IMG/VR virus record: IMGVR_UViG_2835052945_000005
Span: 343 to 64,342 of that record
Length of the DNA: 64,000 bases
Origin: a virus
Taxonomy: Duplodnaviria; Caudoviricetes
Reading direction: 5' to 3' (one strand)
Shown in pieces: positions 18,971 through 25,817 of this stretch. Position 1 is the first letter of the stretch. The number at the start of each line of letters is the position of its first letter. Made by a program: the position numbers and the translations under genes. Below the pieces are notes generated by a model. It did no database searches. It was not told the origin of the DNA and saw only the letters and a program-made list of their open reading frames with translations.

Positions 18971-20472
18971 GTCTGTGGAGCCGAATGACCGGAAAAATAA
19001 AACGTCCGAAATTGGGCCAGCAAATCGCCAGTACCGGCGACGGCCGCGATATCACCCGCCCCTGGGTCGGCGCTCTGGCGCTATCGGATGACAGCGTACT
19101 GCGCCATCGCGGCGCGCCGGATTTGCAGATTTACCGCGAGGTGCTCAACGACGACGAAGTCAAATCATCCTATACCCAGCGCCAGGACGCGGTCATTTCC
19201 CGCGAGTGGAAAATTGATGCCGGCGGCGAACGCCCGATCGATATCGAGGCCGCCGAAGCGATGCGTGAACAGATTGATGCGGTCGGTTGGGATCGCGTCA
19301 CGCGACTGATGCATTACGGCGTGTTCTACGGATACGCCCCCGCTGAACTGATCTACGGCACCCGCGCTAACTTATTGTGGGTGGATGATATTCGGGTGCG
19401 CGACCGCCGGCGTTTTCGCTTCTCTCCTGGAGGCGAACTGCGGCTGCTGACGCCCGGCAATATGTTTGCCGGCGAACCCTGTCCGCCGCCGTATTTCTGG
19501 CATTTCTGCACCGGCGCCGACCACGACGATGAACCCTATGGTCTGGGACTGGCGCACTGGCTGTACTGGCCGACGTTTTTTAAACGCAACGGCCTAAAAT
19601 TCTGGATGATCTTTCTGGATAAATTCGCCATGCCAACAGTGGTGGGTAAACACCCGGAAGGCGCTACAGAAGAGCAACGGCGCAAACTGCTGGAACTGAC
19701 GCGCGCCATCGCTGCGGATAGCGGTGTGATCATGCCGGAAAAAATGCTGGTCGAATTGCTGTCCGCCGCCCGCTCCGGCACGGCGGATTATCAATCGCTG
19801 TACAACGCGATGAATGAGGCCATTCGCCGCGTCACCGTTGGGCAAATATCCAGTTCCGGCGGCGCCAGCAAAGGGATCGGCGGCGATGAGTCTCTCCAGG
19901 CCGATATCCTGAAATCCATCGCCAAATCCGACGCCGATGTGATCTGCGAAAGCTGGAACCGTGGGCCGGGCGCCTGGTTGACCGAGCTGAATTTTCCCGG
20001 CGCCGCCGTGCCGCGCGTCTATCGGGTATTTGACGAACAGGAAGATTTGGCCAAACGCGCCGAACGCGACAAAAACATTACCGAAACGACAGGCTACCGG
20101 CCGACGCTGGCCAGCGTGATTGAAACCTACGGCGGCGAATGGGAGCCCAAACCGGTCGAGACACCGCGTCAGCCAGCCGAGCCTGCCGCCCCGGTGCAAT
20201 TGGCCGAATCAAGCACCGAGCCGGACGCGCCCGCGCTGATGGCGCAGCGGTTGAACACCGAATTGCAACCCGCCACCGATACCTGGATAAACCAGATCCG
20301 CGAATTGGTCGATAGCGTGGAATCGCTGGAGCAGCTGCGCGACGAACTGGTGACGTTGCTGCCTAACATGTCGCTGGACGATTACGCCGCCGCGCTGGCG
20401 CAGGCGTTGTCGGCCGCGCACCTGGCGGGTCGCAGCGATATCGTCGAGGAGGCGGCGGATGGCGACGACTAA
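18967..20472 (+). CDS. Portal protein (DUF935, Mu gp29-like)
   Basis: YGLGLAHWLYWP...FLDKFAMPTVVGK. Confidence 0.92.
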   Translation: MSLWSRMTGKIKRPKLGQQIASTGDGRDITRPWVGALALSDDSVLRHRGAPDLQIYREVLNDDEVKSSYTQRQDAVISREWKIDAGGERPIDIEAAEAMREQIDAVGWDRVTRLMHYGVFYGYAPAELIYGTRANLLWVDDIRVRDRRRFRFSPGGELRLLTPGNMFAGEPCPPPYFWHFCTGADHDDEPYGLGLAHWLYWPTFFKRNGLKFWMIFLDKFAMPTVVGKHPEGATEEQRRKLLELTRAIAADSGVIMPEKMLVELLSAARSGTADYQSLYNAMNEAIRRVTVGQISSSGGASKGIGGDESLQADILKSIAKSDADVICESWNRGPGAWLTELNFPGAAVPRVYRVFDEQEDLAKRAERDKNITETTGYRPTLASVIETYGGEWEPKPVETPRQPAEPAAPVQLAESSTEPDAPALMAQRLNTELQPATDTWINQIRELVDSVESLEQLRDELVTLLPNMSLDDYAAALAQALSAAHLAGRSDIVEEAADGDD

Positions 20473-21739
20473 CGCCAGCTACGGCACCCTGCCGTTCTCC
20501 GAGCAGATTGCGTTTTTCCGCCGCAAACTGGCGCTGCCGACTACCGGCTGGACGGATATCTACAATGCCGAGCACGACTGGGCATTTGTGGTGGCCGGCG
20601 CCAACCGCAACGACCTGGTGAGCGATTTTCAACAGGCGGTAGACCGTTTCATTGCCGAGGGGCGCACGCTGGCGGATTTTCGCCAGGACTTTTCGTCCAT
20701 CGTTGAGAAACACGGCTGGAGCTATAACGGCGGGTTCGGCTGGCGCACGCGGGTGATCTACGACACCAATCTGCGCGGCAGCTATCAGGGCGGACGCTTC
20801 GCTCAGTTGATGGAACACCGCGAGACCATGCCGTACTGGGAATACGTTCACAGCGACGCCGTCGAGCATCCCCGCGAGCTGCACCTGGCGTGGGACAGCA
20901 TGATCCTGCGCTGGGACGATCCCTGGTGGACAACGCATTTCCCGCCCAACGGCTGGGGCTGTCAGTGTACTGTGCGCGGCCGCTCCGAATCGTGGATGAA
21001 ACGCAATGGGCGCAGCGTCGATACCGCGCCGGAAATCGTCTGGGAAGATCGGACGATCGGCCAGCGCAGCATCAACGGCTCCTACACCGTGCGGGTGCCG
21101 CAGGGTATCGATCCGTCGTTCGAGCATACGCCGGGGCGCTCAAGGCTGGACGGCCAGACGCCGCCGCCCCGCAATGATGACCCGCTGAGCGACAATCCGG
21201 CCAGTATGAGCAGTGCCGGCGCGCCGGGCGTTCCCAGCCGGACGCCATCGGATGCGCTACCCACGCCGCGCCCGGCCAGCGCCGAGCGGCTGCTGTCTGC
21301 CGGGCTAACCGATCGGGAGTACGCTGCCGCGTTCCTGGGCGAGTTCGGCGCCACGCTGGAGCAGCCGGCGATATACCGCGACGTGGTCGGAGAGCCGCTG
21401 GTGGTTGGCTCGGCGCTGTTTACCGTACGCAAAACCGGGGCGCTCAAAATCAGCAAACGCGGCCGCGAACGGTTTTTATTACTACTGGCCGATGCTATCC
21501 GAGAACCTGATGAAGTCTGGACGCGTATCGAATGGATGGCGGCACGCAACGCTGCCATTGTCCGACGCCGCTATATCGCCCGGTTTGATATCGACGATAC
21601 AACAACGCCCGCATTGGCGGTCTTTGACGTCGGCGCTGATGGTTGGACGGGCGTAACAACATTCGCGCCTGATGACGCGGATTATCTTGATGGGTTACGG
21701 ATCGGTGTACGAACATATCGGCGAGATGAAAAAGCGTAA
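20459..21739 (+). CDS. MuF head morphogenesis protein with C-terminal nuclease-fold (PBECR2-like) extension
   Basis: MuF core RVIYDTNL...HPRELHLAW...FPPNGWGCQC; Pro/Ser linker; C-terminal LADAIREPDEVW...RRRYIARF...WTGVTTF. Confidence 0.8.
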   Translation: MATTNASYGTLPFSEQIAFFRRKLALPTTGWTDIYNAEHDWAFVVAGANRNDLVSDFQQAVDRFIAEGRTLADFRQDFSSIVEKHGWSYNGGFGWRTRVIYDTNLRGSYQGGRFAQLMEHRETMPYWEYVHSDAVEHPRELHLAWDSMILRWDDPWWTTHFPPNGWGCQCTVRGRSESWMKRNGRSVDTAPEIVWEDRTIGQRSINGSYTVRVPQGIDPSFEHTPGRSRLDGQTPPPRNDDPLSDNPASMSSAGAPGVPSRTPSDALPTPRPASAERLLSAGLTDREYAAAFLGEFGATLEQPAIYRDVVGEPLVVGSALFTVRKTGALKISKRGRERFLLLLADAIREPDEVWTRIEWMAARNAAIVRRRYIARFDIDDTTTPALAVFDVGADGWTGVTTFAPDDADYLDGLRIGVRTYRRDEKA

Positions 21740-22554: not shown

Positions 22555-23679
22555 ATGCCCCAGCAATCCACAGCCACACTACCGGTTTTCATGCCCGGCA
22601 CGCATACCGCGATGGACGGACGTACCGTAACGTTCACGATCGAGGATTGTCTCGACCTGGCCAGCAGCTACGACCCAGCGCTTGCCGAGGCGCCGTTTGT
22701 TATCGGTCACCCCAAACTGACGGCGCCGGCCTATGGCTGGGCGGGCCGGTTCGAGGTGCGAGACGATCTGGTTTACACCGAACCGAAACAGGTTGTGCCG
22801 GAATTTGCCGAAGCGTTTAACAAAGGATTTTGGAAAAAACGCTCGCTTTCCATCTATCTGCCGGATTCGCCCGGTAATCCCAAACCCGGCCATTACTATC
22901 CGCGTCACGTCGGTTTTCTTGGCGCCGTACCGCCGGCGGTAAAAGGGTTGCCCGATGTGCAATTCTCCGAAGCCGGCGGCGAGAATGCCCCGCTGGAGTT
23001 CGCTATTCCCTGGGAGACTGAACTGCTGACCGATATGTTTCGCAGCTTGCGCGACTATCTGGTCGAAAAAGAGGGCGCGGAGCGTGCCGATCAGATCCTG
23101 CCGCAGTGGCGCCTTAAATCCATTGAAGAAGCCGCCGCGCGGGCATCCGAGCCTCAGATATCACCACTGGCGTATGCCGAGGAGACCAATGTGTCAAAAG
23201 AAAACCCAAACCTTAATCCAGCCGCTGATCTCGCGGCGCGTGAAGCGTCGCTGGTTGAACGCGAGGCGCGTATTCAGGCGCAGGAGCTAGCGCAACAGAA
23301 AGCGGCGGCCGAACAACGACGCGCCGATATCGTTTCATTTGCCGACGGGCTGGCGAAAGACGGCCGCATTCTGCCGCGTCAGAAAAACGCGGTCGTCGAA
23401 GTGCTGGTCAATCTGTCCGCCGAACCGATCTCGTTTGCCGACGGCAACGCCACGGTCAGCAAAACCCCGGAAACCCTGCTGCGGGAAATTCTGGGCGACA
23501 AACCGACGCTGCTGGATTTCAGCGAGAAAACGCCGCCGGAAGGTGAAGGAGCCGTGGATTTCGCCGACGCTGAATCCATCGCCGCCGCTGCCCAAGCGTA
23601 TCAGGCGGAGCAGCAGAAACTGGGACGCACCATCTCTATCACGGCAGCCGTCCATCACATCAAGGGGAACCAGAAATGA
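22555..23679 (+). CDS. Prohead protease/scaffold (Mu gpI/Z-like)
   Basis: GTHTAMDG, APFVIGHP, HVGFLGAVPPAVKGL. Confidence 0.88.
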   Translation: MPQQSTATLPVFMPGTHTAMDGRTVTFTIEDCLDLASSYDPALAEAPFVIGHPKLTAPAYGWAGRFEVRDDLVYTEPKQVVPEFAEAFNKGFWKKRSLSIYLPDSPGNPKPGHYYPRHVGFLGAVPPAVKGLPDVQFSEAGGENAPLEFAIPWETELLTDMFRSLRDYLVEKEGAERADQILPQWRLKSIEEAAARASEPQISPLAYAEETNVSKENPNLNPAADLAAREASLVEREARIQAQELAQQKAAAEQRRADIVSFADGLAKDGRILPRQKNAVVEVLVNLSAEPISFADGNATVSKTPETLLREILGDKPTLLDFSEKTPPEGEGAVDFADAESIAAAAQAYQAEQQKLGRTISITAAVHHIKGNQK

Positions 23680-24047
23680 ATATTCCAGGACTGATCACCG
23701 CCCGCCAGTCGTCCACCACCGTCATCGCGCGCCGTTTGATTATCAACGGCGCCAGTGATGGTCTGGCCGGGCAGGCAACCGATGGCTCCGCGCTGATTAT
23801 CGGCGTCAGCACTGACGTCGATGCCGCTCCCGGCGACACGTTCGACGTGATCCGCTCCGGCCTGGCGCCGGTGACCTATGGCGGCGATGTGGCGCTGGGT
23901 GATCGACTGACTGCCGATGCTGATGGCAAAGCCGTGACGGCCGCCGCCGGCGACTACTTTATCGGTTACGCCGAGGTGACGGGGGCGGCGGATGAAATCG
24001 GTTCGGTGTGGATTGCCCCCGGACAACTGCCGGCGGCGGGCGCCTGA
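23676..24047 (+). CDS. Capsid decoration/cement protein (DUF2190-like)
   Basis: IIGVSTD...TYGGDVALGDRLTADADGKAV. Confidence 0.8.
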   Translation: MNIPGLITARQSSTTVIARRLIINGASDGLAGQATDGSALIIGVSTDVDAAPGDTFDVIRSGLAPVTYGGDVALGDRLTADADGKAVTAAAGDYFIGYAEVTGAADEIGSVWIAPGQLPAAGA

Positions 24048-24127: not shown

Positions 24128-25060
24128 ATGGCTGCTAATTTTCCGTTTCCCGTCGATCCGGTGTTAACCGGTATCACTATTGCTTACCGCAACCCGTCGC
24201 TAATTGCCGACGAGGTGCTGCCGCGCGTGCCGGTGGGATTGAAGTCGTTCAAATGGCTGAAATTCGCGCTCGGTGAGCGTTTCTCCGTGCCAAACACGCG
24301 TGTGGGACGCAAATCCGCGCCGAACCAGGTGGAGTTTTCAGCCGAAGAAGAAACCGACTCGACCAGCGATTACGGCCTTGATGCGCCGGTGCCGCAGGAC
24401 GATATCGATAACGCGCCGAAAAATTTCGATCCGCTCGGTCACGCAACAGAAGCCACTACCGATCTCATCCTGCTGGATCGCGAAGTTCGCGCCGCCAATC
24501 TGGTGTTCGGTGCCGACAGCTATAACGCGACCAACCGCACCCAGCTTGCCGGTACTGCGCAATGGAGCCACGCGGACGCCAATCCTATCAACGTGATTAC
24601 CGATGCGCTCGATACGCTGATCGCACGGCCAAATATCGCCATCCTGGGGCGCAAGGTGGCCACCGCGCTGCGCCGCCATCCCACCATCGTCCGGGCATAC
24701 AACGGCACGACCGGCTCCGATGGCATGGTGCCGCTGGCATTTCTGGCTGATTTGCTGGAGTTGGAGAGCATCTATGTCGGCTCCAGTTGGGTTAATACCG
24801 CCAAACCCGGCAAAGCGGCGTCGCTGGTTCGCGCCTGGGGTAACCATGCCTCGTTTATCTACCGCGATCGTCTGGCCAATACTCAGGGTCGGGTGACATG
24901 GGGGATTACGGCGCAGTTCGGCGGCCGCGTGTCAGGCGCCATTGCCGACCCTGATATCGGTTTGCGCGGCGGCCAGCGTGTTCGCGTCGGCGAATCCGTC
25001 AAGGAGTTGGTCGTCGCCAAAGACGTCGGCTATCTGTTCCAGAACGCGGTGGCCGCATAA
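24128..25060 (+). CDS. Major capsid protein
   Basis: FPVDPVLTGITIAYRN..., 310 aa, position after decoration gene. Confidence 0.88.
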   Translation: MAANFPFPVDPVLTGITIAYRNPSLIADEVLPRVPVGLKSFKWLKFALGERFSVPNTRVGRKSAPNQVEFSAEEETDSTSDYGLDAPVPQDDIDNAPKNFDPLGHATEATTDLILLDREVRAANLVFGADSYNATNRTQLAGTAQWSHADANPINVITDALDTLIARPNIAILGRKVATALRRHPTIVRAYNGTTGSDGMVPLAFLADLLELESIYVGSSWVNTAKPGKAASLVRAWGNHASFIYRDRLANTQGRVTWGITAQFGGRVSGAIADPDIGLRGGQRVRVGESVKELVVAKDVGYLFQNAVAA

Positions 25061-25062
25061 CG

Positions 25063-25284
25063 ATGGCCGTGATTAACGCGCAACCCTCTCACCGTCAGCT
25101 TACGGATGCCGAACTGGCGGTGATGGAAGAGATTATCGATTTGCGGACCATTGTGGGCGACTACCTGGACGGTCTGGCCGACAATCCGGCCATCGATCAG
25201 ACCTGGCTGCGTATCGCCCGCGAGCAGTTGCAACAAGGGTTTATGGCCGCTACCCGCGCGGTAGCCAAGCCCGCGACGTTTTGA
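25063..25284 (+). CDS. Acb2-like (anti-CBASS sponge fold) protein, divergent
   Basis: HRQLTDAELAVM... and IDQTWLRIAREQLQQGFMAATRAVAKPATF match the Acb2 pattern YRxLxxxE...RWxxIxxTxxQxGxMAxxRAxAxPxxF. Confidence 0.75.
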   Translation: MAVINAQPSHRQLTDAELAVMEEIIDLRTIVGDYLDGLADNPAIDQTWLRIAREQLQQGFMAATRAVAKPATF

Positions 25285-25292
25285 GGTAAGCG

Positions 25293-25817
25293 ATGAACAC
25301 GACCCGCTACATCACCCACGCCGATCTGGCCGAACACCCCGGCACCGCCGAACTGGCGCAATGCACCGCACAGGACGGCGAAGTGCCGGTGCCGCCGTCA
25401 CTGCTGGCCGTGGTTATCGCCCGCGGCGACACGGCGGATTGGACGGCTGACGAATTGGTGCAGGCCAATGTGACGCTGGGGCGTATTGATGAGGTCATCA
25501 CCGACACCCAGGGACTGATTGACGGCTTCCTGCGCCAGCGCGGCCACCGGCTGCCGCTGGCTGCGGTGCCGCCGCTGCTGACCCGCTGGGCGCGGGCCAT
25601 CGTCCGCTATCAGCTCAATCGCAACCGCGTCGGCGATGAGAAAACCGATCCGGTGATACGGGATTACAAAGAGGCGATGGCGTACCTGGAAAAAGTGGCG
25701 GCAGGCAAATATTCGCTCGGGATTGAAGATCCGTTGCCGCCCGCAGGCGGCGTACCGCAGGTAACCGGCCCCGGACGGACCTTTGATATGCACTCGCTGC
25801 GGGATTTTGGTAAATGA
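25293..25817 (+). CDS. Head-tail adaptor (Mu gp36/DUF1320-like)
   Basis: YITHADL...IDGFLRQRGHRLPL...IRDYKEAMAYLEKVAAGKYSLG. Confidence 0.88.
   Translation: MNTTRYITHADLAEHPGTAELAQCTAQDGEVPVPPSLLAVVIARGDTADWTADELVQANVTLGRIDEVITDTQGLIDGFLRQRGHRLPLAAVPPLLTRWARAIVRYQLNRNRVGDEKTDPVIRDYKEAMAYLEKVAAGKYSLGIEDPLPPAGGVPQVTGPGRTFDMHSLRDFGK

Follow-up and report, generated by a model that had tools for sequence, protein, structure and literature searches.

The window, by which we mean the whole stretch of 64,000 nucleotides that was analysed, carries an element of the B3/Mu-like siphoprophage type. A 73-aa open reading frame, here called the acb2-like gene, fills the slot between its capsid gene and its gp36 gene. 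The features of the late head operon around it are as follows.

22555..24047, + strand: upstream genes of the late head operon (ORFs), in the same gene order as in JBD67
within 22555..24047, + strand: ORF of 374 aa at the protease/scaffold position, without a Pfam match
23676-24047, + strand: cement/decoration-like protein of 123 aa (Phage_cement_2; phrog_673)
24128..25060, + strand: major capsid protein gene, 310 aa (Phage_cap_E; phrog_1005 'major head protein', 1.5e-104)
25063..25284, + strand: acb2-like gene, 73 aa (ORF; match to PF24729 above the cut-off)
25293..25817, + strand: Mu gp36-like head-tail adaptor gene (PF07030, 1e-26; phrog_195 head-tail adaptor), the downstream border of the acb2 slot

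As the earlier note had described, the 73-aa ORF follows the capsid gene at once: its ATG is 2 nt past the TAA of the capsid ORF, and translational coupling of the two genes is therefore likely. The acb2-like gene would be expressed along with the late head operon.

The prophages that carry orthologues of the acb2-like gene encode MuF-like proteins (L003:1437-2681, L005:1544-2767 and L006:1240-2400) that end in a PBECR2 domain (PF18810), for which a nuclease-type polymorphic-toxin/effector function is predicted. The MuF of the window itself (20459-21739, 426 aa) is comparable in length.

The genomic slot

The order of the module in the window is that of JBD67: MuF-like (F-like), G-like, scaffold, cement, capsid, [acb2] and the PF07030 gene. 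The statement that JBD67, a B3-like phage, carries an acb2 gene was borne out, as this gene (orf24, record positions 23005-23232) was found with the capsid gene on one side and the PF07030 gene on the other. The two elements are the same kind of transposable siphophage and the genomic slot is identical, but JBD67 has an additional 65-aa ORF between the capsid gene and acb2. The closest orthologues of the acb2-like protein (84%, 68% and about 45% identity) occupy the same capsid-to-gp36 slot in Mu-like prophages (L003, L005 and L006), which come from one Serratia fonticola assembly, one other NCBI assembly and one metagenome contig. The acb2-like gene is the sole gene of the slot in its own lineage. 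Further away, among phages whose capsid is related, three contents of the slot were seen: a 115-aa gene by itself, this gene followed by an acb2 of the canonical JBD67 type, and a 57-aa gene.

A position directly behind the capsid gene, with probable translational coupling and no other gene in the slot in its own lineage, would suit a role of the Acb2 scaffold other than that of a sponge, either in protein binding (masking the capsid or another phage trigger, or inhibiting an effector) or in head assembly. That both nucleotide pockets are non-canonical, as described below, also points this way. We nevertheless regard such a role as decidedly unlikely. The content of the slot varies in related phages, which is typical of accessory cargo, and an acb2 deletion phage of JBD67 exists (PMC10312549, resource table), which implies that the slot gene is dispensable there. 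In addition L13, P70 and F73, which frame the pocket, are conserved together with the N-terminal segment, as would be predicted for a small-molecule pocket. The variable content and the deletion phage together suggest that the slot is a site for accessory cargo and not for a structural gene, and the acb2-like gene, intact and kept by selection, would be a PaMx33/JBD67-clade Acb2 carried there as such cargo. The structural role at the capsid that had been suggested for it was accordingly down-weighted.

The other slot proteins have features of their own. The 115-aa protein, found in Pseudomonas/Halopseudomonas-type relatives (L021, L029, L034 and L038), is Ala/Pro-rich and has a conserved C-terminal 'RERLEHDG.PYG'; the canonical acb2 that may follow its gene is present in some relatives and absent from others, a polymorphism typical of cargo. 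The 57-aa protein occurs in Inquilinus-type relatives (L030-L032) and has a similar 'Y.GQ.FEIGDP' motif. Five near-identical copies of an Acb2-like gene (39% identity to the window's protein; L013 and L017-L020) were found in the 4.0 Mb genome G285, from another genus of the same family; presumably these represent five copies of a transposable Mu-like prophage.

Membership of the Acb2 family

The acb2-like protein matched the Acb2/Tad1 hairpin domain of Pfam (PF24729, Acb2_Tad1_hairpin) with 44.1 bits over residues 10-69, the gathering cut-off being 27 bits. A phmmer search of the PDB with the single sequence gave a marginal match (E 0.05) to PaMx33 Acb2 that was confined to the last 28 residues, and a family profile was therefore needed to settle homology. 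Exhaustive searching with phmmer brought up 215 relatives at E <= 0.001, and a profile was built from 123 of them; the MAFFT alignment used below contains 125 family members. The profile matched PaMx33 Acb2 (8h2j) over its full length with E 9.3e-25 and T4 Vs.4 (7uq2) with E 2.9e-8.

An AlphaFold2 monomer model generated from the 123-relative alignment (pLDDT 89.7) has the two long antiparallel helices, the N-terminal segment and the C-terminal tail of the Acb2 fold. In the protein these parts are an N-terminal segment (1-13) with H10 and L13, a first helix (15-38) with E22 and I25, a second helix (46-68) with T47, R50, I51 and E54, and the tail K69-P70-A-T-F73. When the model was searched with Foldseek, the top 9 matches were all Acb2 or Vs.4 chains (probability 1.00). 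In VIA-align 8h2j, 7uq2 and 8h2x ranked first (Z 8.2, 8.1 and 8.0, with rmsd 2.1-2.8 Å across 69-72 residues), whereas unrelated generic helical hairpins reached Z <= 6.9. The near-invariant scaffold positions of the family are retained (D45, W48, Q57, G59, M61, R65 and P70), and the column of F73 is F in 111 of the 125 members.

The scaffold motifs listed in the earlier note can be read in the sequence. The C-terminal one is present as W48-L-x-I51...Q57-x-G59-x-M61-A...R65-A-x-A-x-P70-x-x-F73 and the N-terminal one as R11-x-L13-x-x-x-E17...M21, although the spacing given there for the E and the M was slightly loose (3 residues from E17 to M21). The homology and structure alignment to Acb2 that the note had called for yielded a match by both routes (8h2j; profile E 9.3e-25, VIA Z 8.2), and its view that the Acb2 fold is kept is supported by the sequence profile, the predicted fold and the synteny with JBD67 acb2. 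A Pfam score above the cut-off, a profile E of 9e-25, conserved orthologues and a dN/dS of 0.09-0.16 (see below) show that the resemblance to Acb2 is not due to chance. In the sense of homology, and as judged from profiles and a predicted structure, membership of the acb2-like gene in the Acb2 family is solid, and by the same homology the protein would adopt the Acb2 helical hairpin fold and assemble into an interlocked hexamer.

Two relatives are far longer, P0043 (1166 aa) and P0085 (1474 aa), in which the Acb2 hairpin was matched in 8 and 2 stretches, respectively; their architecture may be one of repeats or fusions of the hairpin domain.

The best reference for the protein is PaMx33 Acb2 (PDB 8H2J, 8H2X, 8IXZ-8IY2 and 8J8O), which belongs to the same family and clade. 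The two share the two-helix hairpin, the N-terminal ligand segment and the C-terminal PxxF tail (VIA rmsd 2.5 Å over 72 residues), and have in common the scaffold residues W68, G79, M81, R85 and P90, and also F93 (PaMx33 numbering). The acb2-like protein lacks the 19-20-residue insertion in the inter-helix loop of PaMx33 Acb2 (73 aa vs 93), and by BLASTP the identity to it in the last 26 residues is no more than 46%. JBD67 Acb2, with affinities of about 99 nM for cGAMP and about 3.5 nM for cA3, differs in having the canonical Y, N, K, R and T and the long loop insertion (109-aa annotated ORF).

The two ligand pockets

The ligand-binding residues were mapped against the PaMx33-type Acb2 translated from phage Neko (P0010), which is identical to the PaMx33 sequence in Table S1 of Hadary et al. 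(bioRxiv 10.1101/2025.08.24.671296). The register of the HMM alignment (family profile against 8h2j) was the same as that of the MAFFT alignment of 125 members, which gave the following correspondences.

PaMx33 Y11 to H10: Y in 92 members (commonest), H in 13
PaMx33 L14 to L13
PaMx33 N23 to E22: N in 95 (commonest), E in 10
PaMx33 K26 to I25: K in 93 (commonest), I in 2
PaMx33 R67 to T47: R in 112 (commonest), T in 2
PaMx33 A70 to R50
PaMx33 I71 to I51
PaMx33 T74 to E54: T in 109 (commonest), E in 3
PaMx33 P90 to P70

The by-eye mapping of the earlier note (H, I, T and E at Y11, K26, R67 and T74, with N23 to E) thus proved exact. Relative to PaMx33 Acb2 the changes are Y11H, N23E and K26I in the dinucleotide pocket and R67T, A70R and T74E in the trinucleotide pocket. 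In place of the Tyr 11 and Lys 26 of canonical dinucleotide binding the protein has H10 and I25, and in place of the Arg 67 and Thr 74 of canonical trinucleotide binding it has T47 and E54. Both canonical sets are kept in 76 of the 123 relatives; 11 of the 123, in several lineages, have neither.

The consequences can be judged from published work on PaMx33 Acb2, in which Y11 stacks on the bases of cyclic dinucleotides and K26 forms salt bridges with their phosphates; Y11A and K26A each abolish cGAMP binding (PMC10312549). On the three-fold axis lies a second pocket, in which R67 and T74 from adjacent protomers hold the phosphates of cA3 and A70 and I71 add hydrophobic contacts; cA3 binding is abolished by R67A and weakened by T74A (PMC10312549). 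Natural variants behave in the same way: T4 Vs.4/Acb2 (PDB 7UQ2), with D at 67, and the Acb2 of Serratia phage CHI14, with E at 74, each lack one of R67/T74 and bind dinucleotides but not cA3 (PMC10312549). These two proteins retain the Tyr/Lys dinucleotide pocket and bind cGAMP, whereas the acb2-like protein is without both sets of residues.

A closer analogue of the altered dinucleotide pocket is found in the 46-homologue screen of Hadary et al., which included three proteins of the PaMx33 clade (Table S2). Acb2_16 and Acb2_26, with canonical Y/N/K, blocked both CBASS systems. Acb2_40 (IMG/VR Ga0131753_1001839), likewise short and of the PaMx33 clade, combines His at 11 with non-polar residues at 23 and 26 (H/A/V); it is the closest analogue screened experimentally and was validated against 0 of 7 signalling systems (cGAMP CBASS, cUA CBASS, two Pycsar, and Thoeris I, II and IV). 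It differs from the acb2-like protein in keeping R67 and T74, and cA3 systems lie outside that panel. From the published mutants and the T4, CHI14 and Acb2_40 variants one would predict that little or none of the canonical di- and trinucleotide binding is left. Judged by residue and by analogy, the acb2-like protein most likely no longer sequesters 3',3'-cGAMP-type dinucleotides and cA3 in the canonical way. The inactivity of Acb2_40 could just as well mean that such variants are sponges for no tested signal.

These data bear on one alternative, an ordinary Acb2 in which His10 stacks in the manner of the Tyr and R50, one helical turn further on, replaces R67, so that CBASS di- and trinucleotides, perhaps including the predicted cA3-type product of the host's CdnC, are still sequestered. 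The Y->H change does occur in otherwise canonical pockets: in other members of the family (P0061 and P0113) His stands at position 11 next to canonical N23/K26, which suggests that a nucleotide pocket can accommodate it. Helix 2 also keeps one Arg per protomer on its pocket face, and the host, as described below, has a type III CBASS cyclase homologous to the CdnC of E. coli MS115-1. On the other hand, replacing K26 or R67 by Ala is by itself enough to abolish binding, and neither CHI14 Acb2, with its E at 74, nor T4 Acb2, which lacks R67, binds cA3; N23->E together with K26->I moreover take away two units of positive or neutral character per protomer beside the ligand phosphates. The H/A/V protein Acb2_40 also failed against both dinucleotide CBASS systems. 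An ordinary Acb2 is, therefore, a serious but unlikely explanation.

The earlier note had also held that the pockets are rewired from basic to neutral or acidic. K26->I, N23->E, R67->T and T74->E, with a net charge for the whole protein of -4 (vs -1 in PaMx33 Acb2 and as the family median), agree with this, but an Arg is regained at position 70 (R50), so that the description holds only in part. Arg at PaMx33 position 70 is found in five sequences, four of which (P0001, which is the acb2-like protein itself, P0002, P0020 and P0031) have an acidic residue at 74, while an acidic residue at 74 occurs in 6 of the 125 family members overall. This co-occurrence suggests an i/i+4 pair of R50 and E54 that neutralises or plugs the three-fold pocket; R50-E54 may form a compensating salt bridge on the face that lines the trinucleotide pocket. 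Since R70 goes with an acidic 74 elsewhere, the three-fold pocket need not be simply acidic and may instead be neutralised or plugged.

Likeness to Acb2_43 was considered and rejected on sequence. In the work of Hadary et al., 10 Acb2 homologues inhibit type I Thoeris, a structure of Acb2_43 with 3'cADPR is available, and in this protein, itself a type I Thoeris inhibitor, the Acb2 hexamer scaffold has been re-specified to a non-CBASS signal via N-terminal residues. Acb2_43 comes from a distant clade (REKS..TKLEEAMF motif) and has additional beta-strands, and the pattern of its ligand residues as given there (T4, H5, L6, V7, K19 and K55) has no counterpart in the acb2-like protein; the two have no ligand motif in common. 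Nor was a match to the N-terminal motifs SHRQ, SHKQ or GHRxL found in Table S2 or in the accessible part of Table S1.

Constraint, history and possible function

Against two orthologues the dN/dS of the acb2-like gene is 0.157 and 0.089, compared with 0.137 for the capsid gene and 0.186 for gp36. The reading frame is intact in all orthologues, and 7 sequence variants from the immediate lineage share H10, E22, I25, T47, R50 and E54 without exception. A dN/dS like that of the capsid gene and the invariance of these residues indicate that the protein is maintained and is not decaying, a low dN/dS being a mark of constraint that does not tell which function is constrained. The loss of all key residues and the rarity of the lineage (2 of 401 species-representative genomes of the host family) could be taken to mean that the gene has no function any more, ligand binding having been lost, and is a drifting remnant. 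This is very improbable, however, as its dN/dS (0.09-0.16) equals that of the capsid gene, the frame and the substituted residues are preserved as above, and the H/E/T triad is conserved in more distant orthologues.

That triad (H, E or D, and T at positions 11, 23 and 26) defines a clade in a FastTree phylogeny of the family (support 0.965), with the N-terminal motif (I/V)I(N/K)AQxSH(R/K)Q(L/F). L13, P70, F73 and the N-terminal segment are conserved within it, and one of the more distant orthologues that keep the triad is in a Serratia fonticola assembly. The clade is nested among canonical members, within a larger group whose dinucleotide pockets are non-canonical. R67 and T74 are retained in members of the H/E/T clade (P0004, from Serratia fonticola, and also P0003, P0005, P0006 and P0014), and the combination R67T + A70R + T74E is found only in the window's protein and its 84% relative (support 0.997). 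The picture that these sequences suggest is of a stepwise and derived remodelling, with the dinucleotide pocket altered first and the trinucleotide pocket next.

The genome of the window's host (4.13 Mb, 100% complete) carries a type III CBASS, complete by its appearance, on contig 53 (L009:1465-6010), with all genes on one strand. Its components are as follows.

Effector: Cap17-like, ATP nucleosidase type, 528 aa (PF18178 + PNP_UDP_1)
Cyclase (CD-NTase): CdnC-like, 315 aa (E 6.4e-37 to E. coli MS115-1 CdnC)
Further genes: HORMA, TRIP13 and a Cap18-like DEDDh exonuclease

In the genes that the comparison covered, this set is that of the E. coli upec-117 system apart from CapW and Cap19. The product of MS115-1 CdnC is cA3. 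Neither mCpol (Panoptes) nor TIR_2 genes were found in the window's host genome, and neither SMODS nor mCpol in the genome with the 84% orthologue (G287). No host-side correlate of the variant emerged from these two genomes, which are too few for an association.

All of the residues defined by mutagenesis differ from the canonical ones in the two predicted pockets, the dimer-interface pocket (H10, L13, E22, I25 and P70) and the three-fold pocket (T47, R50, I51 and E54). The dimer-interface pocket appears to retain an aromatic/imidazole stacking residue, the hydrophobic walls formed by L13 and P70, and the C-terminal PxxF, while trading the phosphate-binding Lys for a hydrophobic residue and the Asn for Glu. 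As to the three-fold pocket, an R50-E54 pair probably closes or neutralises it. The function most likely to be retained would then be the sequestration of a nucleotide-derived immune signal by a re-specified dimer-interface pocket. We tentatively favour this reading, in which the acb2-like protein is an Acb2-type sponge and a hexamer, with its three-fold pocket closed and its dimer-interface pocket re-specified to recognise a nucleotide-derived signal, and give it a rough probability of 0.45.

A more specific proposal, possible but rather doubtful, is that the dimer-interface pocket has been re-tuned to an immune signal that no characterised Acb2 is known to sequester, for example the Cap17-activating product of the host's CdnC-type type III CBASS, or that it is blind to Panoptes. 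Panoptes responds to the binding of dinucleotides by Acb2, and T4 Acb2 carrying Y8A no longer triggers it (PMC12657218). A pocket insensitive to the decoy dinucleotides of Panoptes-type guards is a possibility, and such a counter-move was foreseen in the Panoptes paper.

The concept of re-specification is not new, given the 3'cADPR-binding Acb2 homologues of Hadary et al. (2025), and the novelty is less than the earlier note implied. The present case stands out in that the change falls in the clade that is best characterised and at the locus of a characterised orthologue, that natural intermediates exist and that every mutagenesis-defined residue is replaced. On its residues, the acb2-like protein is an attractive candidate for a new ligand specificity.

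Of the phage sponges that counter cyclic-nucleotide immunity, Acb2 is the most widespread, and the rules for its specificity derive from a handful of residues in one clade. The acb2-like gene offers a clean natural experiment: the clade and the slot are the same, all the ligand residues are replaced, and the gene is under purifying selection. If the protein binds a new signal, it would provide a compact structural route to a new sponge specificity and a tool for fishing out immune messengers; if it binds nothing, the scaffold would have a second, non-sponge use. The series from canonical through H/E/T to H/E/I+T/R/E supplies ready intermediates for asking how guards such as Panoptes shape the evolution of sponges, and the protein may itself be an example of a sponge that avoids such decoy-based guard systems.
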